From a virus: DNA of 43,507 bases. Location of the stretch: IMG/VR virus record IMGVR_UViG_3300033183_000299, positions 1 through 43,507 of that record; one strand, given 5' to 3'. Under the pieces are notes generated by a model. It saw only the letters and a list, made by a program, of their open reading frames with translations. It was not told the origin of the DNA and searched no databases. A program made the translations under genes and the position numbers. Numbering within the stretch: the first letter of the stretch is position 1; each line of letters begins with the position of its first letter. This document shows positions 14,129 to 31,389 of this stretch, piece after piece.

Positions 14129-14399
14129 TGGGTCTCCATTGCTGTTGATTATACTATAATATAACATGGTAGCAACCACCTGTCAAATAAAATCTGTTAC
14201 TTTAACGGACAGAAACTGTCCGGGTCTCTACGATTCCGTATCTCTGGGAAGCCTGGAAGGCCTTGGCCTTTTTCGTGGGCAATTGGGAATGTATAGTTAT
14301 GTAAAGTTTTTTGGCACCTGATAGTTATGTTAAGTTTTTTGTAGGATCGCTACAACGTCGGGGCTACCGACGTTATAGAACCATGTCGCTGGAACCGAC

Positions 14400-15059
14400 T
14401 TAATAGGCATCGTTCAATTCACCCATGATATCGTCGGGGATGGTGTCGTCACCGTATTCTGCAAGCAAGCGGTCTGCAAGGCGTTTGGCTTCCTTTCGTT
14501 CCATAGCCAACCGACGTTTGCGTTCTGCCTTGCTTTCTCGATCGAGAGTAACAACGTCCACCACAACATCGGTATAGTCGGAAATGTAAGACATTGGACT
14601 GACCACTCGAACATACTCGTTAGGTTCGAACCGTTCGATAGCATCGACTTTCTCTTGCCATGTCTTTGTAAGTTTATCGGTGCTCTCGGACTTGTAGAGA
14701 CGTTCAATTGTGGCGATGGTGCTATCAATCGATGCGTTCGCACAAGCCGACAACATAGCAACTTTCTCTTGTGCCGTCAAGATGTCTGAACCATCGGCTA
14801 ATTCGTACTCATAGTCGTCATTCCACTGTGTGATCGCTACTCGCATGTTACCATCGGGTGTGTATCCCTTGACTTCTCCCATGCCGTAGGGGGTAGGTAG
14901 GGTAGCACCGATCTTAAATACATAGCCACCTACAAGGTTCTTACGGATACGGATAGGGCGACCGTCGGGATCGATACCATCTACTTTGTAGCCTGCGATA
15001 GTTGTGGGTGTCATGGACTTGATGAATGAGTAAGGTAAAGACTGTGTAGTCATGGGCAA
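14400..15059 (-). CDS. hypothetical protein
   Basis: 219-aa ORF behind an operator-promoter. Confidence 0.75.
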   Translation of the reverse strand: MPMTTQSLPYSFIKSMTPTTIAGYKVDGIDPDGRPIRIRKNLVGGYVFKIGATLPTPYGMGEVKGYTPDGNMRVAITQWNDDYEYELADGSDILTAQEKVAMLSACANASIDSTIATIERLYKSESTDKLTKTWQEKVDAIERFEPNEYVRVVSPMSYISDYTDVVVDVVTLDRESKAERKRRLAMERKEAKRLADRLLAEYGDDTIPDDIMGELNDAY

Positions 15060-15169
15060 TGTCCTTTGAAAGGGTTGTTGTTGAAGATGTTATAAGTGTA
15101 TCATGGTTGGAGAGAGTTGTCAAGTGGAGAAACGGTCAATTTTTGTCCACCTCTCCACAATGCCGAGAA

Positions 15170-15475
15170 TTAGAGCCATTCAGGTGCTTTACCGTCTTTT
15201 AAGAATTGACGATAGGCTGTATTGATACAGTCGTATTTCTCGAATAACTCATCATAATAGCGACTGTATTGGGCAAATCGTTCCTTATTATCGTCTGATG
15301 GATTATAATAGTATTGCATAGCAAGTTCATTCAAGCGGGCTTGAATAGTTGGGAAAGCCATTTGATGGGTGTGCAAGAGTTGTTGAAAGCGTATAAGTGT
15401 CTGACCATATGTAGACATATTCGATCCTGTGTTGAGTGTTGTGTTGACGTGGTGTGAAGATGGTTGTAAGGTCAT
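15170..15475 (-). CDS. hypothetical protein
   Basis: Start moved to MTLQP behind CAGGAG. Confidence 0.6.
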   Translation of the reverse strand: MTLQPSSHHVNTTLNTGSNMSTYGQTLIRFQQLLHTHQMAFPTIQARLNELAMQYYYNPSDDNKERFAQYSRYYDELFEKYDCINTAYRQFLKDGKAPEWL

Positions 15476-15549
15476 TGTTGTCTCCTGTGTTGTTGTTGAT
15501 GTTATCATTGTATCATGGTTGGAAAGGTTTGTCAAGTTCAATTCGGTCA

Positions 15550-15717
15550 TTATTTGTCCGATGGTTTGATTGATAGGGATTGAACGGAATAGTTTGAATA
15601 CATATGGTATGCACGTCTCTTGCAATTGCTAGTTGTATAGGCTTTCATGGTGTGGTTGTGACTCTCTAATTGCCCTTGACGATTGATGATAGTGATACGA
15701 ACGGTGAAGTTACTCAT
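15550..15717 (-). CDS. hypothetical protein (55 aa, not in ORF track)
   Basis: MSNFTVRITIINRQGQ...SDK; own promoter; stop lies inside the next operator. Confidence 0.6.
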   Translation of the reverse strand: MSNFTVRITIINRQGQLESHNHTMKAYTTSNCKRRAYHMYSNYSVQSLSIKPSDK

Positions 15718-16173
15718 TGGATTGTCCTGTGTTGTTGTGAGAGTTAGTATTGTATCATGTTCTCAAAGGTTTGTCAAGTAAAATCTGTTACTTTGCCGGT
15801 CAATTTCTGTCCGTTGCTTCTATGGTGGCGAAGGCCACGGCCTTGTAGAGAGCGCACTTTCTTTTTCGTTGGTATGGATTTGGGGATGGATAGTTATGTA
15901 AAGTTTTTTGGTCTCGTCAAGACTTTTCGTTGGTATGGTAACTTGCTATTCTAGCGTCTGTATGGGCAATTTGGTGTTAGTTCTCTCTAATAAAAGTACG
16001 ACTTTATAATGGGTATCGTCAAGAGCATTTAAGAGCCTTAAATGAGATGTAATAGTTATGTAAAGTTTTTTGCCACTGTATAGTTATGTAAAGTTTCTTG
16101 ATGACCCACGAAAAAGGTATAGGCCTTAAAAGTTGGTATACCTTTTTCATCTTCCATAGGAAGCACCTAACAT

Positions 16174-16374
16174 TTAAGGCTCTGAAACCATAGGTTTCGT
16201 ACCACGTACCCACTCACGTTCTGTGTAAAGACCATCGGTCTCACGTGCCTGATCAAGCATGATCATGTGTACCTTAAAATACGGTACTCCATCCAATTGA
16301 AAACCACGATGTTCAATCTTTGTAACCAATACAAGTCCGAACCGTTGGGTGTTGTAGAGATTGCCTACTTGCAT
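16174..16374 (-). CDS. SH3/KOW-like miniprotein
   Basis: MQVGNLY...FGLVLV. Confidence 0.65.
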   Translation of the reverse strand: MQVGNLYNTQRFGLVLVTKIEHRGFQLDGVPYFKVHMIMLDQARETDGLYTEREWVRGTKPMVSEP

Positions 16375-16550
16375 TGTGTATCCTGTGCTATGGGTGTGTA
16401 TTGGGAACTAAATGATGGGATGTTGATGTAACGTACTTTTCCGTTGGCGAATGAGTGTAAACCTATGCGGTTCTCGGACTTGTAGACGATCATGAATAGT
16501 CCGTCTAGTGCGAAGTGTGTGTATAAATCTCCGAATTCGTGGGTAGTCAT
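16365..16550 (-). CDS. SH3/KOW-like miniprotein
   Basis: HEFGDLY; GGAGA RBS. Confidence 0.65.
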   Translation of the reverse strand: MTTHEFGDLYTHFALDGLFMIVYKSENRIGLHSFANGKVRYINIPSFSSQYTPIAQDTQCK

Positions 16551-16753
16551 AGGGTCTCCGTAAAGGGGTCTAGAAAGGACTTTGGTGGCTTGGGGCGGTA
16601 GTAGGGTAGGGGGGTAGTGTACAAGGGCTTACAAGGGGTGTGAGGTAGGTTTCTGTGGACGTTCCATACCACCACACCTTTCACGCCCATATTTACAAGG
16701 GTATATACACTGGGTACATACAAGATAGTTAGGGGACTGTACAAGGATGGAAA

Positions 16754-17002
16754 CTACCTACCAAATAAATTCTCCAATGCTTGTTGTAGGGGATCACCTT
16801 TTGCCTTGCTAGGTTGGGGCTTTATCTTTGATCTACTGATGAAATCATCGGTGTCCGTTTCTAGGGCTGATAGCAAGACCCAATCGGTTTTATCGACTTG
16901 TGGAAAGTAACACATGCAAAGATAGTCTTTCATCTTCGGGGCTTTGGAAAGGATATAACCTTTACCGTATTCAACGTGGTATACTGTATCAAATTGGTTC
17001 AT
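16754..17002 (-). CDS. SH3-like miniprotein
   Basis: DTVYHVEYGKGYI (VxHxxxGxG motif). Confidence 0.7.
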   Translation of the reverse strand: MNQFDTVYHVEYGKGYILSKAPKMKDYLCMCYFPQVDKTDWVLLSALETDTDDFISRSKIKPQPSKAKGDPLQQALENLFGR

Positions 17003-17022
17003 GGGATCTCCGATGTTGTGGG

Positions 17023-17205
17023 TTATTGGTGTGTACGAATGAGTTGGACTTGATGTACTGGAAAGTTATAGAACTTACCACCTTTTGCTACGGTAACGGT
17101 ATTGCCACCACCAAAGGATACGAAACGATAGGTATTGTTGTTATAAATTGCAATCATGGGGATCTCCGATGTTATGGGTTTAGTCGTTGTTATACTTGTG
17201 TTCAT
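17023..17205 (-). CDS. hypothetical miniprotein
   Basis: ORF with GGAGA RBS before an internal Met; start uncertain. Confidence 0.5.
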   Translation of the reverse strand: MNTSITTTKPITSEIPMIAIYNNNTYRFVSFGGGNTVTVAKGGKFYNFPVHQVQLIRTHQ

Positions 17206-17340
17206 TGTTTAGTAGGTATGGGATATACAGGCTCATAGCCATAAGGTTTACACCGATCATTATAAGGGTATTCATTGGTGTCTCCGATTGATGGGGTTGC
17301 TTTGTTGATGTTATAAGTGTATCATGGTTTGGCTAAAACG

Positions 17341-17598
17341 TCAAGGACAAATTTTGACCGTTCCGTTAAACCATCGTATCTGACGACCTTTGTAGTTGAT
17401 AAACGCATAGTTGTGGTTGCCTGCGGTATCGTATTGTGCCATGAAACTCTCATACACACGATACCATCGCTTGCCACCGTTGATCTGAACCATCTGATCT
17501 GTCGGTATTCTCGAACCAAAACCGTTCTTGTTGATCGCTCGGTCGATTGATGATTGGATTAAAGGGTTTGATCGGGTCTTGGTTATCTTGATATCCAT
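17341..17598 (-). CDS. hypothetical protein
   Basis: Start MDIKIT behind GGAGA; ends VKICP* inside the next operator/-35. Confidence 0.7.
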   Translation of the reverse strand: MDIKITKTRSNPLIQSSIDRAINKNGFGSRIPTDQMVQINGGKRWYRVYESFMAQYDTAGNHNYAFINYKGRQIRWFNGTVKICP

Positions 17599-17697
17599 AG
17601 TGTCTCCAATGTTGTGGTGTTGTTCTGTTGATGTATATAGTGTATCATGAATGAGACCGTTTGTCAAGTGTCCAAACGGTCAATTTCTGTCCGACTG

Positions 17698-17976
17698 TTA
17701 ATGAATGTAAACATGTTCTGTCATGATCTCGCCATTTTGGGAATACAAGGTGATTGACGTACTAGCATGGATCGGCAAACCTGTTGACAGGTCGTCAAAG
17801 CGATACAGTTCCAATATGTAGCCATTATCGAAACGGTATTCAACGCTGTTGTCGGTGGTTCGGGTATGGTCGATGATTGCTTTGGTGTTGTGGAAGATGT
17901 CCATAATGATTGCAACAAGTTGCTTATTGATCTCTTTAATGTCGATGGTGTCTGTATTTTCCATTGATGTCTCCAT
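17698..17976 (-). CDS. hypothetical protein
   Basis: ORF behind an operator-promoter. Confidence 0.7.
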   Translation of the reverse strand: METSMENTDTIDIKEINKQLVAIIMDIFHNTKAIIDHTRTTDNSVEYRFDNGYILELYRFDDLSTGLPIHASTSITLYSQNGEIMTEHVYIH

Positions 17977-18186
17977 TGGATGGGGTTTGTCGTTGTTGAT
18001 GTTTATAGTGTATCATGTTCTCAAAGGTTTGTCAAGTAATAATTGTTACTTTGGCGGACAGTTTTTGACCGTTCTTCTATGGTCTCGGTGGTGCGAGAAT
18101 CGTGGGGAGATTGGATTGGGGTTTCCATTTATAGTTATGTAAAGTTTTTTGGTGGTCTCCGAAACTACCGACATGATAGAAGAATA

Positions 18187-18292
18187 CCCACGATAGAATA
18201 CCAAAGGCATCTATACGTGGGCACGTGTGGGAGATAGTCAAAGACTATCATGTATGGGTGCAAATAGCCTTTGGCTATCATGCCCATACATG
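18187..18292. other. cluster of three hairpins (structured element)
   Basis: CCCACGATAG/CTATACGTGGG; GATAGTC-aaa-GACTATC; CATGTATGGG...CCCATACATG enclosing ATAGCC-ttt-GGCTAT. Confidence 0.55.
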
Positions 18293-18305
18293 GGGGATTG
18301 ATGTA

Positions 18306-18653
18306 TCAATCCAATAGTGTGGTGAGCACGATCTCACACTTGTTCGGGTCATAGGTGGCTTCGCCACTTGCGAGAGCATCTACGAGCCATTTGGCTTCCT
18401 TGCGGGCTTCACGCAAGGTGTCATACTCTACAAATGCGTATGAGTGGATGCTCCCACTCTCCATAGCCATGCGTATGGAATACTTGCGATCTCGCTTGTA
18501 GTTGTGGTCGCTCGTGATGAACACGCAACCACCGAGCATATCACCGATAAGACGTGTGCCGAACATCTTCATGGTGTCTCGGTCGAACCAATGAAAGCCT
18601 TGTTGATAGTTGAATTGACGAAATTGAGAAAGAGATTTGTAATTGCCTAACAT
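18306..18653 (-). CDS. hypothetical phage protein
   Basis: HWFDRDTMKMFGTR...FITS motif; start moved to MLGNY. Confidence 0.7.
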   Translation of the reverse strand: MLGNYKSLSQFRQFNYQQGFHWFDRDTMKMFGTRLIGDMLGGCVFITSDHNYKRDRKYSIRMAMESGSIHSYAFVEYDTLREARKEAKWLVDALASGEATYDPNKCEIVLTTLLD

Positions 18654-18715
18654 GTCGCATCCTGTGGAATAGTTTTGGGGTTGGGGGTAGGGTAGTAGAT
18701 GGGTAGGGTATGTAC

Positions 18716-18736
18716 CCACACCCCTTTGGGGTGGGG
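18716..18736 (-). terminator. GC-rich hairpin after the AAA gene
   Basis: CACCCC-ttt-GGGGTG core; no clear U-tract. Confidence 0.35.
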
Positions 18737-18748
18737 CTTGACTGATGA

Positions 18749-19807
18749 TTAAGACGCGAGAATACGCATAAGGTAGTCTTTTGGCGTGCTACCGTCCGAC
18801 AAAGTAGCCGTATGGATACCATGAGCATTGTGTGCAACTTCCTTGCCTTTCGAGATAACTTGGAAGAACAGCATACCGAGTTCCGATGGTAGCGATACAA
18901 AGTATTCTGCTACGTTGGTCAATTCGGTCTTATCGAGTTTACGGTCGAATACCTTTGACTGCTTGAAACGTTCGATCAATGCGTTGTGATCGTTGATTGA
19001 GAAATCTTTGGTAAGTTTGTGCTTGCCATCTAGGATCTCTTCGACAGTCACGATCTTGTTGTAGTTCTTGACGTAGTCAACAAGGGCGACACCAGCCTCG
19101 AAACCAACGAAACCTGTGGTCAAGTGATACAAGATACCGTTGTTAGCGAGAGCCTTGATATCTTGGTCTCCGATAGTCTTGGACAATCGCTCCCATGAGC
19201 GTCTTGATGGGTAAACCTTGTTAGGCTCGTAGTCATCGTTGTGTTCAAGATGGTTGTGATTATCGTTGATAAAGTCCCAAATGACTTGACTGACGTTGCC
19301 ATCTGCCCATGATAACCAATCTTCTACGGTTGGCTTTACATCGAATACGGTGTAACGGTCAAGTTCTGCGGGATCCATTTCTCCGACTTGATACTGGTCT
19401 CCATGATCTCCACCACCGTTTACACAGGCAAAGATTACAGTGTCGGGGTGCAAGGTGTAGCCTGCAATCTTGCGACTATCACACAACTCAAAGATACCTT
19501 GGCGGACTTCCATTGTGGCACGATCGACTTCATCGAGAAACAGGATTACAGGGTTGTTACAGGCATCGTGCAACCATTCGGGAGCAAGCCATTGAGTGAC
19601 GTTGCCTTCGACTTTTGGGAGACCTAGCAAATCGCCTTCGGTCATTTGAGATGCACGACGTTCGACAACAGGGAGACCCATTTGATCGGCAATCTGATAC
19701 ACGATTGTGGATTTACCGATACCGTGACGACCACGAATAAGGATAGGGAATTTTGCTGAAATTACGGATGGAAGAACAGAGTTTAATACTGAATAAGAAA
19801 TAGCCAT
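18749..19807 (-). CDS. MoxR-like AAA+ ATPase
   Basis: Walker A GRHGIGKS, Walker B ILFLDEVDR, MDPAELDR, PSRRSW. Confidence 0.92.
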   Translation of the reverse strand: MAISYSVLNSVLPSVISAKFPILIRGRHGIGKSTIVYQIADQMGLPVVERRASQMTEGDLLGLPKVEGNVTQWLAPEWLHDACNNPVILFLDEVDRATMEVRQGIFELCDSRKIAGYTLHPDTVIFACVNGGGDHGDQYQVGEMDPAELDRYTVFDVKPTVEDWLSWADGNVSQVIWDFINDNHNHLEHNDDYEPNKVYPSRRSWERLSKTIGDQDIKALANNGILYHLTTGFVGFEAGVALVDYVKNYNKIVTVEEILDGKHKLTKDFSINDHNALIERFKQSKVFDRKLDKTELTNVAEYFVSLPSELGMLFFQVISKGKEVAHNAHGIHTATLSDGSTPKDYLMRILAS

Positions 19808-20035
19808 GATAAATATCCTTTGGATAGAGTAATGAAAGTAGACAGGATTGTCTGATGTAATTAGTGTAACAGGTTAGTGAAAGAAAGTCAAGGACAGAAA
19901 TTGTCCGTTTGAGATAGTGTCGGTAGTTACGGTGGATCGTTCATATTGTCTCCTAAATGGTGATTGGTTATCTCGTTGTTGATGTTTATAGTGTAACACC
20001 TTGATGAAAAAAGTCAAGGACAATTTTTGACCGTT

Positions 20036-20206
20036 TCAGTTTTGATAGGCAAATTCACCGTTAATCTCGACATTGTCATAGTCAATAGATACATTCGCTC
20101 CCATCGCTTGGGCACTGTTAGAACAGTATGCGATAAAACCAAAGGTGGTAGCAAGGATTGAGAAAAGCATGATAAAGCCTATGTGTTCATTGATAAAGTG
20201 TTTCAT
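20036..20206 (-). CDS. small membrane protein (56 aa, not in ORF track)
   Basis: MKHFINEHIGFIMLFSILATTFGFIAYC...; own promoter and GGAGA RBS. Confidence 0.6.
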   Translation of the reverse strand: MKHFINEHIGFIMLFSILATTFGFIAYCSNSAQAMGANVSIDYDNVEINGEFAYQN

Positions 20207-20275
20207 GGTGTCTCCAATGAAAGGGTTGTTTTGTTGATGTTATAAGTGTATCATGGTTTGGCTAAAACGTCAAGG

Positions 20276-20485
20276 TCAAAAATTGTCCGTTAAAGGTTTT
20301 GCGTCTAACATTCCACCAATACCGAATGTTTTATCTTCACCTGTGTCCATGTTATGGGCTTTGATCTTCATCGCCTTGTGGATATAGCAATAAAACGTAT
20401 CGGTGATAGCGATATAGGTTTGATAGCCATTGATAGAATGGGGGAATTTGAATAAGTCGCCTTTGGTCATTGTGAGTAAATCCAT
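20276..20485 (-). CDS. SH3/KOW-like miniprotein
   Basis: MTKGDLF; stop lies in the next operator. Confidence 0.65.
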   Translation of the reverse strand: MDLLTMTKGDLFKFPHSINGYQTYIAITDTFYCYIHKAMKIKAHNMDTGEDKTFGIGGMLDAKPLTDNF

Positions 20486-20566
20486 GTTGTCTCCATGTTT
20501 CGTTGTTGATGTTAGTAGTGTATCATGAATTGAATGATTTGTAAAGGTCAAAAAATGTCCGACTTG

Positions 20567-20938
20567 CTACAATCGGTATTTTCTGCGTGTTGTAGTGTGC
20601 TTCTCGGTAAGGTCTCGATACATTGGATGGGCTTGCAAGGTCTCGTCAGTCATCATCAATAATGCTGGATGATCGGCAATCTCGGATACATAGCCACTAA
20701 CACTGTCCCAATCTCTCGAACGGATGCCGAATGATTTACCTGTGGGGATATGAGTTACGCACCATTCGCCACCATATCGGGATCGGTTTCCATCTTGTAT
20801 CTCTTGGTGCTCTCCCAAAGGTCGGTGGATAGCCATCGGGTACTGTACTACCCCTACGATGTTCTCGATAATTGTGATACCATCACGACTTTGCCATGCT
20901 CGCAAGTTGATAGTGTCTTTTCGGGTCGGTTGTTTCAT
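20567..20938 (-). CDS. hypothetical phage protein
   Basis: WCVTHIPTG motif; own promoter. Confidence 0.75.
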   Translation of the reverse strand: MKQPTRKDTINLRAWQSRDGITIIENIVGVVQYPMAIHRPLGEHQEIQDGNRSRYGGEWCVTHIPTGKSFGIRSRDWDSVSGYVSEIADHPALLMMTDETLQAHPMYRDLTEKHTTTRRKYRL

Positions 20939-20983
20939 GTTGTCTCCATGTTTCGTTGTTGATGTTTATAGTGTATCATGTTC

Positions 20984-21313
20984 TTAATCATTTGTCAAGT
21001 CATCAGGCGGACATTTTTTGACCAAATCTTCTATGTCTCCGTTACCAAAGACCAATTCTAAATGCCATCGGTAGGTACAGAGTTCTAGGGTGGTGGGGTC
21101 TAGTACCACCCAATTTTCGGGCTTTGTCTCATGTAAGATATACATCTTGCCTTTGATCCATACCATGTCGCCCACGTTAAACTCGCCTATGTAGGCACGC
21201 ATGGCGTCATGCTCTCGCTCCATTTGCCCACACGACTTGCATTGTTCATACTCGTGATCCCATTGGTGGGCTTTCTCGGTGGCAAAGCCACATTGACATA
21301 TCATACGTTCCAT
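20984..21313 (-). CDS. Zn-ribbon + SH3-like protein
   Basis: CQCG...CKSCG, then FNVGDMVWI. Confidence 0.7.
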   Translation of the reverse strand: MERMICQCGFATEKAHQWDHEYEQCKSCGQMEREHDAMRAYIGEFNVGDMVWIKGKMYILHETKPENWVVLDPTTLELCTYRWHLELVFGNGDIEDLVKKCPPDDLTND

Positions 21314-21365
21314 AGGTGCTCTCGTAAGGGGTTTTCGGTTAGGTGGTAGGGTGGTAGCACCCCAA

Positions 21366-21390
21366 AGCCCCCAAAAGGGCTTGTGGGGCT
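21366..21390 (-). terminator. GC-rich hairpin after the vWA gene
   Basis: AGCCCC-caaaagggcttgt-GGGGCT inverted repeat. Confidence 0.35.
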
Positions 21391-21400
21391 TGTTAGAGCC

Positions 21401-22636
21401 TTACTTGTCCATAATCAGAATACGTTCGTTTGTGGAAAAGTAGGGGTTCTCTGCGTACTGTGGGGTAGTTACCCACATTCGCTGACACTTGGATGGCTTT
21501 GGTTTCGGTGCTTCTAGATCGGTTAGGATCAGATGACCGTCAAATTCACGTTCATTGACCCACTTGGTCGGTGCGTCGAAGTCCGTTCCACCACACGATA
21601 CACGTTCCCACGTTCGTTTCTTGCCCTTTTTCCATACGAATACATTTTCTTCGGATACTTCGGTGTCGAAAGGAACAACAGTAAACTCGGCATACTTGGA
21701 TAGTGCCGACAGTTCGGAGAAGAACAAGGCAAGCATACCATCGTCAACAGACCCCGATTGGTCGATAGAGATCGCAATCTTTGCCGTTCGGGTCACACGT
21801 TTACCACTGTGGATATACGGAAATCGTTTGTTGATACGTCTTGGTGTGCTACGTTTGTTCGCTCGTTGCGATGTTTTGATAAAGTAACGCAAGACTTTTC
21901 GCCAATCAACCTTTGGTTTGATGAAATCTTGGATAGCCTTTCGGGTGTCTGCACCGATAGTACCCCAACCACGACCAGTTGAGTTGATCTCGTCAACAGC
22001 GTCTTTGACTGCCTGTTTGAGTCGCTCGGTAGCCACGTCTTTGAGAGCCTGTCGTTGTTCTTCTGAAAGGTGATCGCCACCCCAACCACTGTGATCGTCA
22101 AGTGAGTCGGGCAATCCGTTGCCTTGACTACCTTGCCCATCGCCTTGCTGACCGTCACCACCTTGTCCATCGCCATCTTGGGGCTGATTGAATTGTTCAT
22201 CTTCTTTGAGCATTTTGAAGTAGTATTCTGCGGATTGACCGACAGGATAGTCTTGGAAAGGCTCTCGGCTAGGAAAGCAACCTTGTTCGGGCAACTCGTC
22301 CATAAGGTGGGAATTGATCGCAAGATCGGTGGCGATGTTCCACATCTTGGTCATACCACTCGGTGGTAAGCGACCTGTAACATGCTCAAAGATGATGTGG
22401 TAAAACTCGTGTTTTAGGACACCACTGCGTTCTCGTTGAGTAAGTTTCTCGAAGAATTCGGGGTTGTAAACCATCTCGAATTGACCCTGCTCGGTGATAC
22501 GGACACCTGCTGTTGGGACTGACTTGTTGATTGTCTTGTTGATGCGCCTTGAAAGGCTTGCAAAGAAAGGCTCGCTCTCCAACAACCGATAGGTATGGGC
22601 ATTGAGATCGAAAGGGGTTGTTTTATCGTTTGACAT
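21401..22636 (-). CDS. DUF2201-type metallopeptidase + vWA domain protein (MoxR partner)
   Basis: VLKHEFYH, WNIATDLAIN, Q/G linker, IDQSGS MIDAS motif, GGTDF, ILTD. Confidence 0.9.
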   Translation of the reverse strand: MSNDKTTPFDLNAHTYRLLESEPFFASLSRRINKTINKSVPTAGVRITEQGQFEMVYNPEFFEKLTQRERSGVLKHEFYHIIFEHVTGRLPPSGMTKMWNIATDLAINSHLMDELPEQGCFPSREPFQDYPVGQSAEYYFKMLKEDEQFNQPQDGDGQGGDGQQGDGQGSQGNGLPDSLDDHSGWGGDHLSEEQRQALKDVATERLKQAVKDAVDEINSTGRGWGTIGADTRKAIQDFIKPKVDWRKVLRYFIKTSQRANKRSTPRRINKRFPYIHSGKRVTRTAKIAISIDQSGSVDDGMLALFFSELSALSKYAEFTVVPFDTEVSEENVFVWKKGKKRTWERVSCGGTDFDAPTKWVNEREFDGHLILTDLEAPKPKPSKCQRMWVTTPQYAENPYFSTNERILIMDK

Positions 22637-22742
22637 AATGTCTCCGTTGTTGTGGGGTTTCGTTGTTGATGTTTATAGTGTATCATGTTCTCAAAGGTTT
22701 GTCAAGTAAAATCTGTTACTTAAACGGACAGTTTTTGACCGA

Positions 22743-22907: not shown

Positions 22908-22915
22908 GCTGTCTC

Positions 22916-23257: not shown

Positions 23258-23336
23258 TGGTGTCTCCGTTGTTGTTTTGTTGATGGTAGTAGTGTATCAT
23301 GGTAGTAGGGATTTGTAAAGGACAAAAAATGTCCGT

Positions 23337-23881: not shown

Positions 23882-23892
23882 GATTGTCTCCG

Positions 23893-24039
23893 TTATAGGT
23901 GGAATAGGTTGTGTCCCCACTGCCCTGTTATTTCGCCACTGTCGATCCATTTAACAAGCCAACGGTCAATAACCCCGACTTGTCTAACGACAATGCCGAT
24001 CGTTCCATATTTGTCTTTTACAAGGTCTCCGATGTTCAT
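23893..24039 (-). CDS. SH3/KOW-like miniprotein
   Basis: MNIGDLVKDKYGTIGIVV...LVKW. Confidence 0.7.
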   Translation of the reverse strand: MNIGDLVKDKYGTIGIVVRQVGVIDRWLVKWIDSGEITGQWGHNLFHL

Positions 24040-24115
24040 GTTGTCTCCATGTTTCGTTGTTGATGTTATAAGTGTATCATGGCTTGGTTGATTTGTAAAG
24101 GACAAAAACTGTCCG

Positions 24116-24268
24116 TTATGCTATCACCTCGAAAGTTTCAGCCCAATGCCACTTCTCTAAACCGTCTGCCCACCGTATTCTGTACAGATTGTGTAGGTTG
24201 GACTTTTCAAGCACGACACCCACACAGCCATCGAAGGGGGATTGGACTAATGATCCGATCTGTATCAT
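24116..24268 (-). CDS. SH3/KOW-like miniprotein (50 aa, not in ORF track)
   Basis: MIQIGSLVQSPFDGCVGVVL...YRIRWADG; ATGA overlap with the upstream gene. Confidence 0.65.
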   Translation of the reverse strand: MIQIGSLVQSPFDGCVGVVLEKSNLHNLYRIRWADGLEKWHWAETFEVIA

Positions 24269-24597
24269 AACTTACCCTTTGAATTTCCGTTACCACTGTT
24301 CTCTCCAATCTTTGTGAAAGCAACATCATGGACAGACCCACTGCGTTGGTTATTCCAACCTGACCATTGATCCCATCCTTTGCGATAAAGGTCAGCGTCA
24401 TCTTCGTTCTGAAACTTTAAGATTTGGATACAAGCCATCTTACCATCGCCACTAGAAACGGCTCGAACGGTCTCTTTGATCTCGGTGCCCAATTCAAGAA
24501 CACAGTCGGGGCACTCGTTAATCTTACCACCAACACGTCTTTTGATTTGTGAGTTTAGATCGAATGTGTCGTCACAGTGAATACATATCTTGTTCAT
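24265..24597 (-). CDS. Zn-ribbon protein
   Basis: CIHC...ECPDC. Confidence 0.75.
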   Translation of the reverse strand: MNKICIHCDDTFDLNSQIKRRVGGKINECPDCVLELGTEIKETVRAVSSGDGKMACIQILKFQNEDDADLYRKGWDQWSGWNNQRSGSVHDVAFTKIGENSGNGNSKGKL

Positions 24598-24661
24598 GGT
24601 CTCTCCATGTTTGGGGGTTTTCGTTGTTGATGTTAGTAATGTATCCGATTGAGAGAAAAAG

Positions 24662-24919
24662 TCAAGGACAATTTTTGACCGTTATGATCTTGTCTCGACC
24701 CTGTCGGGTAAATGTAAAGGTCATGTCGTTACAGTGTAGGTCTCCACCCTTAAACTCATCCCATAGGCTCTCCACGTCTGTGTTCGTGAGTGCCTGTGAT
24801 ACGGATGAACTCGCTTGCGTAAAGTCATTACAGTCCCCTACCCACCCTTGTTCTCCGTAGTCGTCAGCCAATTCTTTCGCTGTTTTGAGAATGATCTCAA
24901 ACTTTTGTTGTGTATTCAT
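24662..24919 (-). CDS. hypothetical protein
   Basis: Start MNTQQ behind GGAGA; ends VKNCP* in the operator/-35. Confidence 0.7.
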   Translation of the reverse strand: MNTQQKFEIILKTAKELADDYGEQGWVGDCNDFTQASSSVSQALTNTDVESLWDEFKGGDLHCNDMTFTFTRQGRDKIITVKNCP

Positions 24920-25094
24920 GTTTGTCTCCGATGTTGACGATGCCACAGTCTTTTAGGTATCCCTTTTCAAAGGCATCGTGGTTAAAAATATGGTGTCTTG
25001 CGTAGTTGTGGAAGAAACGGACAACCCACTTGCCATCCGTTTCCTGTAAGGCATAACCAGCCCCCACTTTATCGTGAGTTACTAGGTGTATCAT
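24897..25094 (-). CDS. hypothetical miniprotein
   Basis: Start MIHLV behind GGAGAG. Confidence 0.6.
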   Translation of the reverse strand: MIHLVTHDKVGAGYALQETDGKWVVRFFHNYARHHIFNHDAFEKGYLKDCGIVNIGDKHEYTTKV

Positions 25095-25404
25095 TTTTGC
25101 TCTCCACCAAAGGACAAAGTCCATGACGTTGGGCTTCATCAACATTCATCCAGTTAGGTCTAGGGACTTTCTTTTTCGTCAGACGTACATGGTTGCTCGT
25201 TGTTTGCGAGATATAGTGCCCACCACCGTAGGTGTAGTCGTAGACTAGGGTAGCACCTTGTCCGTACCCATCGGGGATATGTTCGGCAATTCGAGTATCG
25301 AATGACCATAGGCTTTGCCCATCGGTTCGCAAAGTTTTTGATTTACATGGTTTCATTTCCATGAAGTTTTGGATGACTGTTTCATCAGTTGTAAAATAAG
25401 ACAT
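25069..25404 (-). CDS. hypothetical phage protein
   Basis: LRTDGQSLWSFDTRIA...SQTTSNHV. Confidence 0.75.
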   Translation of the reverse strand: MSYFTTDETVIQNFMEMKPCKSKTLRTDGQSLWSFDTRIAEHIPDGYGQGATLVYDYTYGGGHYISQTTSNHVRLTKKKVPRPNWMNVDEAQRHGLCPLVESKNDTPSNSR

Positions 25405-25489
25405 ATAATCTCCGTTGTTAGTCTAGTTTGTGTATAGTATTATAACATGTTCTAAAAGGTTTGTCAAGTAATTTCTTTACCTTTGTCGG

Positions 25490-26461
25490 TCATTTTTTGA
25501 CCGACTTGGCATACCACTTGTCTACAAGTCCGACAAAACCTTTGGCTTTTAGTTGTTCATGAGATCGTTTCTTACACACAAACTGCATAGCCTTTGCGTG
25601 GGCTTGGTCGATCCATTCGCTAGCCATAGGCTTTTCGCTAGGCGAGATTACACTGATACTCTGATAGTCAGACCATCCACCCTTTTGCGAAATAAGACCG
25701 TTAATGCCGATTGATTTGATCAAGTCATTATTCAGTGTGATTGTCTGTTGACGACCATCTACGATACATTCGATAACCACGTTCTGTTGTAGTGTGTGAT
25801 CAAGTGTTGATCGCCAACGACTTTGCATTGGCTTGTAGTCAGTGTCGGCACACATGGACAGTTGATCCCAATTGATCTTTGTAACAATACCAGTCTTTTT
25901 GACGATTGTAGCATTTTGACCCCATCCTTGTCTCTCGGTCAAGGACAGCAAAGCACCCTCGCTAATGCCGAGTTCACCGACAAACTTATCGTAAAACTGT
26001 TGTCGCCACTCTCGGTTGGCTTGGATCGCTTTGGCTACAAAGGTTTCCATTGGCGAACAATTTCTACGGTTGTGATCATGAGACCCACAGAAGCCACACT
26101 TGGCTTTGGCTTTGTTCTTACCTTTGGCTTTGGCTAGTGCCTTTCCTTTGGCTACGACTTGCTTGTTGTGGGCTTTCTCGCACTCGGCATACCACTTGCC
26201 CCATTGAGATGGGTGCTTGAACCATTGAGCAGTGCTTGCTTGTGATTTCCAATTATTTTGCCCTTGTGCTTTGGGCTTTGGGCTGTTTGTCCAGTTGTTC
26301 GGATCGGAACAAGGAATGTTAAACTTTTGGAACATAGCCCAGTCGGTGGCGACATGGGGACAGTCGGTAGCACGATGTTCTACATCACCACAATAAGAGC
26401 ATGATGGTTTTGAGTTTCCACTGGAAGTGCCGTTGTCTTGTTGATTGTTGAATATTTGCAT
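25490..26461 (-). CDS. double CCHC zinc-knuckle protein (paralog A)
   Basis: CSYCGDVEHRATDC and CGFCGSHDHNRRNC. Confidence 0.8.
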   Translation of the reverse strand: MQIFNNQQDNGTSSGNSKPSCSYCGDVEHRATDCPHVATDWAMFQKFNIPCSDPNNWTNSPKPKAQGQNNWKSQASTAQWFKHPSQWGKWYAECEKAHNKQVVAKGKALAKAKGKNKAKAKCGFCGSHDHNRRNCSPMETFVAKAIQANREWRQQFYDKFVGELGISEGALLSLTERQGWGQNATIVKKTGIVTKINWDQLSMCADTDYKPMQSRWRSTLDHTLQQNVVIECIVDGRQQTITLNNDLIKSIGINGLISQKGGWSDYQSISVISPSEKPMASEWIDQAHAKAMQFVCKKRSHEQLKAKGFVGLVDKWYAKSVKK

Positions 26462-26554
26462 GGGTTCTCCGTTGCAAAGGGTTGTTGTTTTGTTGATGTT
26501 AGTAGTGTATCATGGTTTGGATAGTTTGTCAAGTAATTTCTTTACCTTTGACGG

Positions 26555-26767
26555 TCAGTTTTTGTCCGTTTCGTCATCAGTACCGATTGGCTCGATGTGT
26601 TTTGTAAGGTGGATTTCTTTCTCGCAAGATACAAAGCCTGTGCGATAGCCTGTAAGCCACAGGATCATCCATGCTTTGTAGCCTGTATGGTTTGGGTGTT
26701 CCACCTTGACGATCCCGATCATGTCGGGATCAATCGTGGATTGTACAAGGTCGCCAACCGTTAGCAT
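26555..26767 (-). CDS. SH3/KOW-like miniprotein
   Basis: MLTVGDLVQS...IGIV...ILWLTG. Confidence 0.7.
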   Translation of the reverse strand: MLTVGDLVQSTIDPDMIGIVKVEHPNHTGYKAWMILWLTGYRTGFVSCEKEIHLTKHIEPIGTDDETDKN

Positions 26768-27690
26768 GGGAGACCTACCGATTTCTTAAACGCATTGATC
26801 TTCTTGTCTTTGTCGGCATGTGGGTAAAAGTCTCTAATGTAAGCACCCAAATACGACCATAAGTCTTGACCCTTGCGTTTCTTCATGACCCAGTCAATCG
26901 GCTCAAACTCGCCATCAAACCACTCTTGGCTCATGATGTTCGGAGCAGGACTGATGATCTCGGTGATTAGCCCATTATCCCAATAGCCATGTGGTTCTTG
27001 GACACCATGTTCTTTGCCGAGATAGTCTCGCTCGTTTCGGCTAACGTCAAAGTGAAACAGTTTTGGACTACCATTTGATTTACCCACAACGACCTTTTGA
27101 CCATCCAATAGAAAGCCCATTCGTAGGTTGGTGCGATAGTCGCTCCATGTGCTTTGTAGGTTCGTTAGAGAGATGGACTTGGGGTCTAACTCGGTCATTA
27201 GAGAAACCTTTGGAACATAGTCGCCTTGCTCTCGGTCATACTGTCGTAGGGATACCAGTGCCCCAGCACCCAACCCCATGCCTTTGATGAAACGGTCGTA
27301 AAAGTCTTGGCGATAAGCCTTGTTGGCTTGCTCGTAAAGGTGCTTAAACTTGGTCATAGACTTACAATTTCTACGGTTGTGGGTTGTCTTACCACAGAAG
27401 CCACACTTTGGTTTCTTGCGTGGTTTTTTAGCCTTTGTCTTTTCGGTTTCACCATAGTATTTCTCGGCTTTGGCTTGACCATATCGGACATACCACTGTT
27501 CTAGGTGGGTGCTACCAGTACCATACCACTGTGTAACTCTCGTCAATAGCGATGTGTCGATCTTGTCGCCACGTTGATCTTGCTCGTAGTGGGCTTTAAG
27601 GGTGGGGCAACGGTTGATACGGTGTCCGTTTTCGTAGCAATAGCCACAGGCAAAGTGAGATTTTTGATTGCGATTTTCATATAGTTTCAT
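26761..27690 (-). CDS. double CCHC zinc-knuckle protein (paralog B)
   Basis: CGYCYENGHRINRC and CGFCGKTTHNRRNC. Confidence 0.8.
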   Translation of the reverse strand: MKLYENRNQKSHFACGYCYENGHRINRCPTLKAHYEQDQRGDKIDTSLLTRVTQWYGTGSTHLEQWYVRYGQAKAEKYYGETEKTKAKKPRKKPKCGFCGKTTHNRRNCKSMTKFKHLYEQANKAYRQDFYDRFIKGMGLGAGALVSLRQYDREQGDYVPKVSLMTELDPKSISLTNLQSTWSDYRTNLRMGFLLDGQKVVVGKSNGSPKLFHFDVSRNERDYLGKEHGVQEPHGYWDNGLITEIISPAPNIMSQEWFDGEFEPIDWVMKKRKGQDLWSYLGAYIRDFYPHADKDKKINAFKKSVGLPC

Positions 27691-27754
27691 GGGTTCTCCA
27701 TTGAGTGGGGTTGTTTTGTTGATGTTAGTAGTGTATCATGGTAGGGGTAGTTTG

Positions 27755-27898
27755 TCAAGTATTGGAACGGTCAGTTTTTGTCCGTTTGTCGTATTTCTCA
27801 TAGATTTCGTTCATCTTCTTTCGGTGGTCTCGGACAATCAGCCAAAGAGCAAGTGCGAAACACACGTCAGATGCGAGTAGTAAGAGTATTGTAGTCAT
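27755..27898 (-). CDS. small membrane protein
   Basis: MTTILLLLASDVCFALALWLIV; start moved. Confidence 0.5.
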   Translation of the reverse strand: MTTILLLLASDVCFALALWLIVRDHRKKMNEIYEKYDKRTKTDRSNT

Positions 27899-27912
27899 TT
27901 GGTCTCCGATGT

Positions 27913-28164
27913 TCATTGTTCTTCTCCGTTGTCTTGGGGGGTATCGGTAGATGGGGCAGGTCGTAGTGTACCGTCTGATAGCATGCGAGTGACGGCTCTT
28001 TGAAACCAACCTTGTAATTTCCACACTTCTCCCGAGTCAACAAGGTGTTGCCATGCTTGAATGTAGGACATGTCGGGGGTTTCATCCATAGCACCCTCGG
28101 CTATCATGGTTGCGTTGTAGAGCATTTCGGCTTTTTGCTTTTTAGTTAGTTTCTTTTTAGTCAT
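27913..28164 (-). CDS. hypothetical phage protein
   Basis: AWQHLVDSGEVWKLQGWFQR. Confidence 0.75.
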   Translation of the reverse strand: MTKKKLTKKQKAEMLYNATMIAEGAMDETPDMSYIQAWQHLVDSGEVWKLQGWFQRAVTRMLSDGTLRPAPSTDTPQDNGEEQ

Positions 28165-28251
28165 TGTTGTCTCCGAGTTTTGTTGTTGATGTTTGTATTG
28201 TATCATGGTAGTAGGGGTTTGACAAGTCAGTATTCGGACAGTTTTTGTCCG

Positions 28252-28458
28252 TTAGTCTATAACCTCGAACCGTTCGGCTACACCATCTTTTGAGATTGTG
28301 AACCGTTGATTTATTCTGTCGGTGCGAGCGAGCCTGTAACCATCTACGATCCGAACACTTTGACCATATTGTCTCCGTATCTTGATGTGTTCCATGACCA
28401 TGAAAGGTACATTGGTTGGGGAACAAATGCCTTTTAGTAGTGTGCCGATGGGTATCAT
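28252..28458 (-). CDS. SH3/KOW-like miniprotein
   Basis: MIPIGTLL; AAGGAG RBS. Confidence 0.65.
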   Translation of the reverse strand: MIPIGTLLKGICSPTNVPFMVMEHIKIRRQYGQSVRIVDGYRLARTDRINQRFTISKDGVAERFEVID

Positions 28459-28637
28459 TTGATCTCCTTTGGTTGTCTGTGTAGTTGTTGTGGGATAAAG
28501 GTCATCGTCAATTTGTTGTTATTGGTGGACATGACTTGGATATGCCGATAGTCTCCGATAATACCGATTACCAATAGTGGGTGGCTACACCATCCCTTGC
28601 CATGTAGCCATACAAGGTCTCCGATTTCATGTTTCAT
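28455..28637 (-). CDS. SH3/KOW-like miniprotein
   Basis: MKHEIGDLVWL. Confidence 0.7.
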   Translation of the reverse strand: MKHEIGDLVWLHGKGWCSHPLLVIGIIGDYRHIQVMSTNNNKLTMTFIPQQLHRQPKEIK

Positions 28638-28714
28638 GTTGTCTCCATGTCTCATTGTTGATGTTAGTAGTGTATCATGTTGAGAGAAAAAAGCAAGGAC
28701 AGAAATTGTCCGTT

Positions 28715-28930
28715 CTATTCTTTTGTCGCTTTGTCGTCATTTGCTTTCTCCATGTTAAAGCCCATAGATGGGCGTTCTTCGGGTTTTTCGTCTTGGGGTA
28801 GGGGTCTAGAACCCATGCCCATCATCATGGCTTTCATGGGGTTCTGTGAGCCTGATAGGGCTATTACTGTAAGGACTTTGTCTACCAGTTCGTCTGATAG
28901 GTCGATTGTTAATTTGATTTGATTACTCAT
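28715..28930 (-). CDS. hypothetical miniprotein
   Basis: 71-aa ORF, AGGAG RBS. Confidence 0.7.
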   Translation of the reverse strand: MSNQIKLTIDLSDELVDKVLTVIALSGSQNPMKAMMMGMGSRPLPQDEKPEERPSMGFNMEKANDDKATKE

Positions 28931-29112
28931 TGTTGTTCTCCTAGTTTGGTTATATCTTCTTTTCCATATCTCAATGTTCTTCCATCGTCAAAAATGCGAA
29001 CGTCACAAGACCAAGTGCCCACATTCACTACGATAGCCATTTTGCCGACATATCGTGAATTAGCAAAGTCACAGTGTCTAATTCTTACAAGGTCTCCGAT
29101 TTCATGTTTCAT
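28927..29112 (-). CDS. KOW/SH3-like miniprotein
   Basis: MKHEIGDLVRI...YVGKMAIVV. Confidence 0.72.
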   Translation of the reverse strand: MKHEIGDLVRIRHCDFANSRYVGKMAIVVNVGTWSCDVRIFDDGRTLRYGKEDITKLGEQQ

Positions 29113-29167
29113 GTTGTCTCCATGTCTCATTGTTGATGTTAGTAGTGTATCATGTTGGTTGAAAAAG

Positions 29168-29368
29168 TCAAGGACAGTTTTTGTCCGTTTGATTTAGTGG
29201 TTCGAGAAACAGGGGTAGTTGAACCCTTTCAGGCCCATCCGACCATCGTACCACGAAGTATTCAGTCATGCCCATCGTTAGATTGGTATGCTTCATTACG
29301 GTTCTCACGATGATACCAACATCTCTTTCATATTTGTGTCTTACAAGGTCTCCGACTTTAAGGTTCAT
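29168..29368 (-). CDS. SH3/KOW-like miniprotein
   Basis: MNLKVGDLVRHK...VGIIV...VRWSDG; ends DKNCP*. Confidence 0.72.
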   Translation of the reverse strand: MNLKVGDLVRHKYERDVGIIVRTVMKHTNLTMGMTEYFVVRWSDGPERVQLPLFLEPLNQTDKNCP

Positions 29369-29376
29369 GCTTTCTC

Positions 29377-29583
29377 CTATGGTTGGGGATGGTAGTTTAT
29401 CTTAAAGTGTTTGCGTGGGTATTCTAGGTGCTTACCTACCCATGTGGGTTCTAGGTCATACCTTATTAGTTTACACCAAACAGATGCATCATCGGTTTCC
29501 ACGACAAGACCCAACATTGTATACTTATGGTTACCTACTAGGTCTCCGACTTGTGGCTCAATGTCTAGTGTTGCGTAAGTCAT
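29377..29583 (-). CDS. SH3/KOW-like miniprotein
   Basis: PQVGDLV...LGLVV. Confidence 0.7.
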   Translation of the reverse strand: MTYATLDIEPQVGDLVGNHKYTMLGLVVETDDASVWCKLIRYDLEPTWVGKHLEYPRKHFKINYHPQP

Positions 29584-29821
29584 TTTCCCCCCTTTTCATC
29601 AGTTTGGCGATCTTCTTCTGTCGCTCCCACTGATCCACTTGTTGTTCTGTTTCTAATACTTTTAATTCTTCTTCATTTAGGGGCACATAGTCCCCATCCG
29701 AGCCTATGAGTAGCCCTGTGTATCTACCGTAGGGGTAGCCTTGCCCTAGATCGTCAACAACGATAGCAAGGTGGTAGTCGCCCTTGAACTCAAATCCTAC
29801 CATATCTCCGACTTTTATCAT
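29558..29821 (-). CDS. SH3/KOW-like protein
   Basis: MIKVGDMV...LAIVV; start moved. Confidence 0.7.
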   Translation of the reverse strand: MIKVGDMVGFEFKGDYHLAIVVDDLGQGYPYGRYTGLLIGSDGDYVPLNEEELKVLETEQQVDQWERQKKIAKLMKRGENDLRNTRH

Positions 29822-29973
29822 ATTATCTCCCATATATAATCGTGTACTTGTGACTTTTCGCATGTATCCAGTAGATACACTCTTATCCAACCATCCCATC
29901 GGGACATGCCGAGAAAGATTGCGTATGTGTCGTATTTTTCTGTATAGATAAGGTCTCCAACTTTGTAATTCAT
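29818..29973 (-). CDS. SH3/KOW-like miniprotein (51 aa, not in ORF track)
   Basis: MNYKVGDLIYTEKYDTYAIFLG...; ATGA overlaps at both ends. Confidence 0.7.
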   Translation of the reverse strand: MNYKVGDLIYTEKYDTYAIFLGMSRWDGWIRVYLLDTCEKSQVHDYIWEII

Positions 29974-30137
29974 GCTATCTTCTCCAAGTTTTTAATGTAA
30001 ATGTGTTGCGTTGAGCCACTTTTCCATCCAGTGATCCAGTGGATTTCCAAAAAATTCAAAACAGGTGGGCGACCAGTCGATGTGACCACACCGAACCATC
30101 CACTCTTGCTACGAACAAGCGATCCTATTTCCATCAT
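29970..30137 (-). CDS. SH3/KOW-like miniprotein
   Basis: MMEIGSLVRSKSGWFGVV...IHW. Confidence 0.7.
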   Translation of the reverse strand: MMEIGSLVRSKSGWFGVVTSTGRPPVLNFLEIHWITGWKSGSTQHIYIKNLEKIA

Positions 30138-30331
30138 AATTTCTCCAAACATTCTTGATTTTTCCATATCCAATCGGTTTGCTGATTGGATAGAAACCAA
30201 CGAACCTTTATCATGTGATACTGTGGGTTTTTACTTGCGTTGTGCTTCTCGGCAACGATGATGCCATGATCTATGATCTCGTTATCGAAGCCGACCAATC
30301 TTATAAGGTCTCCAATTTTTGCGTTTTTCAT
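30134..30331 (-). CDS. SH3/KOW-like miniprotein
   Basis: MKNAKIGDLIRL...HGIIV...KVRW. Confidence 0.72.
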   Translation of the reverse strand: MKNAKIGDLIRLVGFDNEIIDHGIIVAEKHNASKNPQYHMIKVRWFLSNQQTDWIWKNQECLEKL

Positions 30332-30379
30332 GTTATCTCCGTTGTTGATGTTTGTAGTGTATCATGTTGTGGTGAAAAG

Positions 30380-30580
30380 TCAAGGACAGTTTTTGACCGT
30401 TTCTAAAAAGTCTCGGTCGGTTCGGACTTTCTGTTGGTCTTTGAACCAATAGACCCAAACCACGTTGTTGTTTTGATCGCACAGATCGGTGATTATACCA
30501 ACGTCATCCGTTATTCTTCGCCATCCACCGAGAGCCAATGATCCACGCATGGACAGTCTTACTAAATCACCTACAATCAT
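30380..30580 (-). CDS. SH3/KOW-like miniprotein
   Basis: MIVGDLVRL...VGIIT...VYW; ends VKNCP*. Confidence 0.72.
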   Translation of the reverse strand: MIVGDLVRLSMRGSLALGGWRRITDDVGIITDLCDQNNNVVWVYWFKDQQKVRTDRDFLETVKNCP

Positions 30581-30783
30581 GCTCGCTCCTGTCGGACATA
30601 TCCGAGTTTATTTAAAAAGTGTTTGTGTATATCTTCATGGAGATAAAAATGACCACCTTTGATCTTTGCGTTCTGTCGCTTGATCTTGATCCAACCCTCC
30701 GTATCAACCGATACAATCTCATAGGTGATCAATTCGCCATCCTGACGTATTGTCCATGACTTTCCTATCATATTATTACTCAT
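30577..30783 (-). CDS. hypothetical miniprotein
   Basis: ATGA-coupled ORF. Confidence 0.7.
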   Translation of the reverse strand: MSNNMIGKSWTIRQDGELITYEIVSVDTEGWIKIKRQNAKIKGGHFYLHEDIHKHFLNKLGYVRQERA

Positions 30784-30986
30784 GCGTTCTCCTTATTATA
30801 TTCATGTGCATGGACAAACTCTGTCTCATTAAAGTACCATGCCTGCTGATGTGCTATCATAAACACGTTCATGTTTACCATTCGCTCGTTAGGCACACTC
30901 ATTACTATTCCAATCTCGCCTGTGTAGATTGATGTATAGCACGAATGAGCCAATACCACGATGTCTCCAACCTTAAACTTACTCAT
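30780..30986 (-). CDS. SH3/KOW-like miniprotein
   Basis: MSKFKVGDIVV...TGEIGIVM. Confidence 0.72.
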   Translation of the reverse strand: MSKFKVGDIVVLAHSCYTSIYTGEIGIVMSVPNERMVNMNVFMIAHQQAWYFNETEFVHAHEYNKENA

Positions 30987-31099
30987 AATCTCTCCGTTGT
31001 TTGTGTTGTTTTCTTATCGTATCACGTTTGGAATGGTTTGTCAAGTAATTTCTTTAAGTTTCTCGGTCAAAAAATGTCCGTTTGATAGAAAGAGTTTGG

Positions 31100-31389
31100 A
31101 TAGTTATGTAAAGTTTTTTGCTTTTCTATTTGACAAAGCCCCGAAAACGTGTTACATTAGAGGGTAGCGGACAGAAATTGTCCTCTCGATTATTCACAAC
31201 CCTTGAACGGAGATTATGTTAAGTTTTTTTTTGGACTTTGCTTTCATAGTTATGTTAAGTTTTTTGAAACAAGTTGGAGATCGTCTCGAACTAATGGGCT
31301 TCGTTTGTCCGTTGGTCGGTCGGTCTTTTCTTTGTTTTGCTTTCCATAGTTATGTAAAGTTTTTTGTGGATAGTTATGTAAAGTTTTTT
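31100..31389 (+). repeat. 20-bp direct repeat ATAGTTATGT(A/T)AAGTTTTTT, right cluster (5 copies)
   Basis: 31100, 31210 (degenerate), 31246, 31346, 31370. Confidence 0.9.
31130..31184 (+). promoter_or_regulatory. divergent plus-strand promoter with downstream operator
   Basis: TTGACA(31130)-17 bp-TGtTACATT; operator at 31168-31184; GGAG-ATG at 31216. Confidence 0.65.

Follow-up and report, generated by a model that had tools for sequence, protein, structure and literature searches.

A co-oriented 20-bp element bordering the early genes of related uncultured marine myoviruses

Why would a large phage keep, between its genes, a set of short asymmetric repeats that all point one way and lie in two limited zones of its genome? 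The question is raised by the IMG/VR record IMGVR_UViG_3300033183_000299, the 183,930-bp contig of an uncultured marine myovirus (genome G000; related phage genomes are G001, G002, G006 and G007, and L-numbers denote loci of relatives). The first 43.5 kb of this contig (43,507 nucleotides) are the window to which the coordinates below refer unless a genome or locus is named, and the element in question is the 20-mer ATAGTTATGTWAAGTTTTTT, whose copies lie at 14293-18150 and 31100-31389. Large lytic phages must separate their takeover genes in time from the remaining genome, and cis-elements for such separation are known in only a few model phages; here, a sharply defined and strongly conserved oriented site marks the borders of the early block in a whole clade. 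We conclude that the 20-mer is a real, strongly selected, oriented cis-element, and we tentatively read its arrays, with a probability of about 0.4, as sites for an asymmetric DNA-binding protein that punctuate the borders of the early block.

The 20-mer and its place in the early block

Allowing at most one mismatch, we found ten matches to ATAGTTATGTWAAGTTTTTT, all on the + strand, against a shuffle expectation of 0.02, and none of the 100 shuffles reached ten. The first-pass annotation had listed eleven co-oriented copies; the eleventh is a degenerate copy at 31210-31229 with four mismatches at its ATAG end and an intact core, TTATGTTAAGTTTTTT. No further copy was found in the full 183,930-bp contig on either strand with up to four mismatches. 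All credible genes lie on the minus strand, and therefore the common orientation of the copies is that of the genes, in whose direction the 20-mer reads CAAAAAACTTWACATAACTAT. Two clusters with pairs 24-28 bp apart had been described, and we measured pair spacings of 28, 28 and 24 bp. The copies also lie outside confident genes, as had been claimed: the only open reading frames (ORFs) they overlap are + strand ORFs that run against the gene order and one 64-aa minus-strand ORF (16019-16213), which covers a terminator hairpin.

The copies border a block of 18.9 kb (12851-31705) that is free of AGCT (0 observed, 62 expected), depleted, too, of CCGG, GCGC, CGCG and GGCC, higher in G+C, and inverted in GC skew, being the sole stretch with positive skew on the + strand. 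It carries 24 sense promoters of the sigma-70 type (TTGACA-17-TAnnnT), each with a GGWCA-N5-TGWCC palindrome as its operator and each preceding tiny genes, and we refer to it as the early block. An Rfam scan gave no match inside it. The description of the copies as bracketing this island was roughly right: the five head copies lie 300-600 bp within the upstream edge of the AGCT-free block, and the remaining six in its last 1.4-5.3 kb. Most promoter cassettes directly adjoin the preceding gene, and the 20-mers are confined to the few long non-coding gaps, which share one order. The stop of a gene, in many cases accompanied by a hairpin and in one case by a clear intrinsic terminator, comes first; one or two 20-mers follow, and beyond a spacer without conservation stand the operator and then the promoter. 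The last copy stands 58-131 nt from the -35 element of the next strong sigma-70 promoter, with no conserved sequence between, and this variable distance and unconserved spacer disfavour a classical activator acting from a fixed position. Of the seven promoters that have a long UP-like leader (family D6), four are accompanied by copies, and the 17 others have none (Fisher estimate, 0.003).

The head cluster begins, in gene direction, with the copy at 31370-31389 (+ strand, like all copies), which is the first element past the stop codon (31418) and small hairpin of the preceding gene, and continues with a copy 24 bp away at 31346-31365, a conserved spacer of about 80 nt (31266-31345) that can form a hairpin on the + strand RNA, a T-variant copy at 31246-31265, the degenerate copy, and a copy at 31100-31119. 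The last of these lies 58 nt upstream of the -35 element of the first early sigma-70 promoter (31016-31044, minus strand; TTGACA-17-TACGAT with a GGACA-N5-TGACC operator upstream) and 10 nt upstream of the -35 element of an antisense sigma-70-type promoter (31130-31158, + strand; TTGACA-17-TACATT) inside the cluster. This antisense promoter is the only one found in the 25-kb early-block region scanned; it has one copy upstream and four in its predicted transcript, and an equivalent promoter is present in the head array of four of the five relatives compared. The spacer also holds a near-palindromic 19-mer of the type GTTCGAGAC-n-GTCTCCAAC (31295-31315), found again in L024 and L025, and this 19-mer may bind another protein or belong to the hairpin of the antisense RNA.

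In the tail zone, the copy at 18131-18150 lies 113 nt upstream of the promoter at 18035-18007. It is followed by a copy with one mismatch at 16080-16099, 8 nt past an intrinsic terminator hairpin (about 16108-16143), its partner at a spacing of 28 bp at 16052-16071, and a copy at 15890-15909, about 110 nt upstream of the promoter at 15777-15749. The last pair consists of a T-variant copy at 14321-14340, which comes past the hairpin after the gene ending at 14400, and a copy at 14293-14312, about 107 nt upstream of the promoter at 14186-14158.

Conservation, loss and a composite form among relatives

Relatives were collected by an exact-match scan of viral contigs and by a protein-guided search that used an alignment of the neighbouring peptidase, and they form a clade of marine contigs; a search via the 99-aa gene upstream returned no relatives. 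A megablast of the region gave no close cultured relative, and in protein searches the best identities to cultured phages were 30-45%. Two complete relatives (191.7 and 187.4 kb) each contain exactly two co-oriented clusters 18-20 kb apart and no copy elsewhere, one cluster at the start of the syntenic early block and the other close to its end; three fragmentary relatives have the head cluster. About 50 copies were collected, all co-oriented and none on the opposite strand, so that the genome-wide scatter in both orientations that the first-pass annotation had named as a refutation is seen neither in the 183,930-bp contig nor in the two complete relatives. Arrays hold up to eight copies; neighbours are 20-54 bp apart in tight arrays, without helical phasing, and 20 to 160 bp apart overall. 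A 16-nt core, AA(A/T)ACTTWACATAAYT, is invariant although the flanking proteins are only 25-70% identical (genome-wide mean, ~50%), which indicates a functional site rather than drift. In gene direction the invariant core, AAAACTTWACATAAYT, can be read as two AWAAYT half-sites 10 bp, or one helical turn, apart. This arrangement would suit a head-to-tail dimer or a two-domain protein and would give the site its direction.

A natural control is provided by a sibling phage, G007 (185 kb), which has no copy of the 20-mer anywhere even though its mean identity to the window genome (48%) is close to that of the motif-bearing relatives (50-52%). G007 has the same operator, GGACA-N5-TGTCC, but its genes are tightly packed at the position of the head gap, implying that motif and gap together form one accessory module that is not indispensable to the genome architecture. 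No replacement repeat was found in the motif-less relatives. Two genes follow the same distribution: a 63-aa Hc1-type histone-H1-like protein (PF07432, above the family cut-off; G000 59460-59651) and an N6/N4 DNA methylase (G000 44187-45173) are present in the motif-bearing G000, G001 and G002, and were not found in G007 by tblastn.

A composite variant occurs in the sister lineage G006/L045, where a constant 7 nt separate an 11-nt core, TTTACATAACT, from another conserved element. Read in antisense, that element is TGGCAYG-N4-TTGCA and looks like a textbook sigma-54 promoter sequence; the pattern TGGCAC-N5-TTGCW, with GG at -24 and GC at -12, is found in the composite unit, and G000 has none. 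G006 carries 13 such copies in antisense and one in sense (about 0.1 expected by a composition-based estimate) and L045 carries three, and they form tandem arrays with copies 48-88 bp apart (in G006, L054:5320-5520 and L096:1243, 4523-4650, 6379-6445 and 8282-8405; in L045, 4839-5030). The composite units, too, occupy untranslated gaps where the early block begins and in its last part, again in one orientation. Five of the 17 copies in this lineage read ...ACGTAACT, that is, TTACG for TTATG. The operator-like palindrome of the lineage appears to be a different one, GAGAATCATTCTC (seen twice), and the core is retained. The sigma-54-type sites may be places where a holoenzyme is parked, or antisense promoters. 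No gene for a sigma-54 activator was found in the phage. An early AAA+ protein was considered for this role and dropped, as it is MoxR-like, is paired with a VWA/metallopeptidase protein and is no enhancer-binding protein.

Possible roles of the arrays

How might such arrays act? The phage encodes a tail sheath and GroEL, its large and giant ORFs are structural in appearance, and it is probably transcribed by the host RNA polymerase, because a gp55-like late sigma factor is present: a 230-aa protein at 169.5-170.2 kb of G000 (L030:1144-1836, minus strand) that matches phrog_234 (E = 8e-6) and, weakly, Sigma70_r2. The motif TATAAATA is absent from the coding strand of G000, suggesting that the late promoter motif is probably a different one. 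With its late sigma of the gp55 kind and its strong early promoters of the sigma-70 type, the phage would run a T4-like programme on the host polymerase. Within this programme, we propose that one sequence-specific DNA-binding protein recognizes the 20-mer as an oriented cis site, and that the bound arrays, placed where the early host-takeover block is entered and again in its last part, serve as directional punctuation: they would limit read-through into and out of the block, keeping it apart from its neighbours, and would help to control the single antisense promoter of the head array. The confinement of chance-defying copies to two zones, the same co-oriented layout in the relatives and the placement of the composite units all support this proposal. 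Among the closest known systems is Tus-Ter, a polar protein-DNA barrier. Like the 20-mer, Ter is a non-palindromic site of ~20 bp whose orientation matters and which lies at domain borders; however, Ter sites form two opposed groups that face each other, whereas all sites here point one way, and the two sequences are similar only in being AT-rich. If the binder is a phage protein, it would represent a new regulatory or architectural system.

Several observations weigh against this proposal. Among five genomes compared by gene presence and absence, 12 genes are exclusive to those bearing the motif, including a Zn-ribbon protein (24265-24597), a DUF7417 protein (27913-28206) and a methylase, and none of the 12 belongs to a recognised DNA-binding family, although this comparison is a weak one that relies on a single motif-less genome and on short proteins. 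The tail copies of G000 are spread over 4 kb among promoters and genes, which makes for a loose boundary, and one gap already has a good intrinsic terminator, so that an extra roadblock there seems redundant. Iterons, or signals for packaging or entry, would also be compatible with this anatomy, and the first-pass annotation had named DNA-entry or injection-stop signals, iterons and packaging sites among its possibilities.

The iteron alternative supposes that a replication initiator binds the 20-mers, with the origin at the head array, where the antisense transcript would activate or prime replication, and with the tail zone holding a second set for regulation or handcuffing. Direct, co-oriented, asymmetric repeats of 20 bp fall within the 17-22 bp usual for iterons, a main array of five to eight copies plus a second set recalls P4 (ori and crr) and P1 (incC and incA), in which two iteron sets lie kilobases apart, and the only antisense promoter of the scanned region reads through the AT-rich repeats of the head array. 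The likeness to these systems and to the lambda origin ends there: the spacing is irregular (20 to 160 bp) instead of phased at ~22 bp, no initiator gene and no AT-rich unwinding element was recognised, DnaA boxes and IHF sites are not enriched near the arrays, and G007 lacks the whole module. The comparison with GC skew that had been suggested did show the inverted skew of the early block but no inflection that would support an origin, and we regard iterons as unlikely. A similarly low probability applies to genome-end signals, by which the early block would be a long terminal repeat or a first-injected segment, as in phage T5, and the arrays would be terminase or injection-stop sites. In the first-step-transfer DNA of T5, untranslated repeat regions contain host DnaA boxes and exceed the genes in conservation (Davison, bioRxiv 10.1101/866236). 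The likeness extends to non-coding repeats in an early, restriction-site-poor segment of a large lytic phage, at two separated places, that resemble the site of a host chromosome-maintenance protein. The absence of AGCT from precisely the early block recalls that DNA, three complete relatives have their two zones at a distance of 17-20 kb, and relatives' contigs end just downstream of the head array in 33 of 65 cases and upstream of it in 12 of 65. The T5 elements, however, which include an injection stop signal, are inverted repeats and palindromes with paired DnaA boxes within a proven terminal repeat, whereas here we see a single asymmetric direct 20-mer, no DnaA boxes and circularly permuted maps. 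One gene map, circularly permuted, underlies the contigs of G000, G001 and G002, whose ends are arbitrary and show no terminus (the end and start of G000 map ~5 kb apart in G001 and G002), so that the label 'linear' of the record is uninformative on physical termini. The contig breaks are equally explained by a hypervariable early region full of repeated promoters, the arrays are found 0.3-5 kb within the AGCT-free block and off its edges, G002 and G006 carry arrays without avoiding AGCT, and G007 has no arrays. The avoidance itself differs by relative: in G000 it is limited to the early block, in G001 it spans the genome except for a 24-kb gap (77425-101865), in G007 it is nearly genome-wide, with 48 sites in 185 kb, and in G002 and G006 there is none. 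Promoter readings fare worse still. A promoter for a phage-modified or phage-encoded polymerase would account for a contiguous 20-mer in gene orientation upstream of genes, T7-like in its length, and for a 5' half made of an A-tract and a -35-like TTTACA, but there is no -10 element at a sensible spacing in any copy and no conserved start region, up to eight tandem copies would be odd, and the 20-mer is missing from the other 165 kb, the home of the middle and late genes. Moreover, the gp55-like sigma points to the host polymerase, and no T7-type or multisubunit polymerase gene was found (PF00940, PF00623), the PF00940 negative being weak as the control genomes also gave no match; this alternative is therefore very improbable. 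Sigma-70, sigma-28, MotA-type and ECF readings of the 20-mer were dropped by eye, as a second element at the right spacing is missing. T4-late boxes are not enriched near the arrays. We give as little credence to an RNA-level element, by which the 20-mers would work as repeated protein-binding or pairing modules in the predicted antisense RNA of the head array (31164-31432, ~260 nt, ending at a small hairpin). This RNA folds much better than shuffled sequences (z = -4.3), the hairpin between the copies is kept in two relatives with a few compensatory changes, and G-U wobbles allow the CAUAGUUAUG parts of two copies to pair on the + strand RNA only, but one head copy lies upstream of the antisense promoter and no such promoter is near any of the six tail copies.

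The resemblance to XerD sites, from which the first-pass annotation had started, turned out stronger than it had stated. Both 11-mer variants of the phage are letter-for-letter XerD arms of natural dif sites, TTATGTAAAGT in Bordetella, Caulobacter and Geobacter and TTATGTTAAGT in Jannaschia and Rhodoferax, and Paracoccus also shares ATAGTTATGTAAAC (PMC2731167). They fit the consensus TTATGTnAAnT, match all of the well-conserved positions (TTATG, A25 and A26), and differ from the gamma-proteobacterial arm TTATGTTAAAT at positions published as variable (PMC2731167). Such an arm core is found in just 0.05-0.5% of random 20-nt windows of these phages. Each copy could be a lone XerD arm that the host protein binds without XerC, in order to unload or block SMC-type complexes or to tether or stop entering DNA, and there is a precedent in Bacillus, where XerD is reported to act without XerC at dif-like XDS sites and an array of XDS to make a boundary (PMC11840125, PMC11894783). 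XDS function is known for Smc-ScpAB in Bacillus only. No tyrosine recombinase was found in the phage, and the constancy of the core in the lineage of G006, where the phage operator appears to have changed, is as expected of a host factor. The arm match stands, but nothing further supports XerD and several observations weaken it. No full dif site is present: in agreement with the earlier description, the copies have no CATAA-type XerC arm, and the 10 nt on the would-be XerC side differ in every copy. Nor is the conservation confined to the arm with an invariant TTATG, as an A/T run plus G and the ATAG are conserved outside the 11 bp, whereas the flanks of dif vary (PMC2731167), and the TTACG of the G006/L045 copies departs from the TTATG of all listed dif sites. 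The major variant is two positions off the near-invariant gamma-proteobacterial arm TTATGTTAAAT. The sister lineage has its core fused to a sigma-54-type element, and the equally related G007 has no copy. The 20-mer further contains an exact -35 octamer of sigma-28 as well as the -35-like TTTACA, both clearly unused, showing that perfect look-alikes of such a size do occur by chance. Pelagibacter, with which relatives are sometimes binned, is reported to lack Xer and dif, though such binning is unreliable: the metagenome-assembled genome bins of the relatives comprise Candidatus Pelagibacter (including one 116-kb contig), Flavobacteriales, Woesearchaeota and Gammaproteobacteria (L135, L140 and other loci), and this contradiction probably reflects mis-binning of phage contigs, with a possible lead to the host. 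We therefore consider it quite unlikely that the arrays are lone sites for a host chromosome-maintenance protein, by sequence XerD, which at both borders of the first-expressed DNA would act as a boundary, unloading or stalling SMC-type loop extruders or defence complexes or holding the DNA during entry, with a sigma-54 holoenzyme parked beside them in the sister lineage. They would share with XDS an arm identical to natural XerD arms and an apparently missing XerC partner, and would differ in forming lytic-phage arrays of up to eight sites, in their conservation past the arm and in a likeness that is one of sequence. If the binder were XerD, this would be the first lytic phage to borrow the chromosome-dimer machinery for a purpose other than recombination.

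The early block itself resembles the hyperplastic regions of T4-type phages, in which Arbiol and colleagues reportedly described promoter-early stem-loop (PeSL) cassettes in 2010: in both, tiny variable genes abound, and a repeated early-promoter cassette accompanies each of them. PeSL is the promoter cassette itself, whereas the 20-mer is a separate element that is found at only four of the 24 promoters. Inside the block, a MoxR-like AAA_5 ATPase (18749-19807, minus strand) and a DUF2201 metallopeptidase/VWA protein (21401-22636, minus strand) appear to form a MoxR-VWA pair that may have a role in takeover, and their genes are the best conserved of the early block, with 65-72% identity to those of the relatives.

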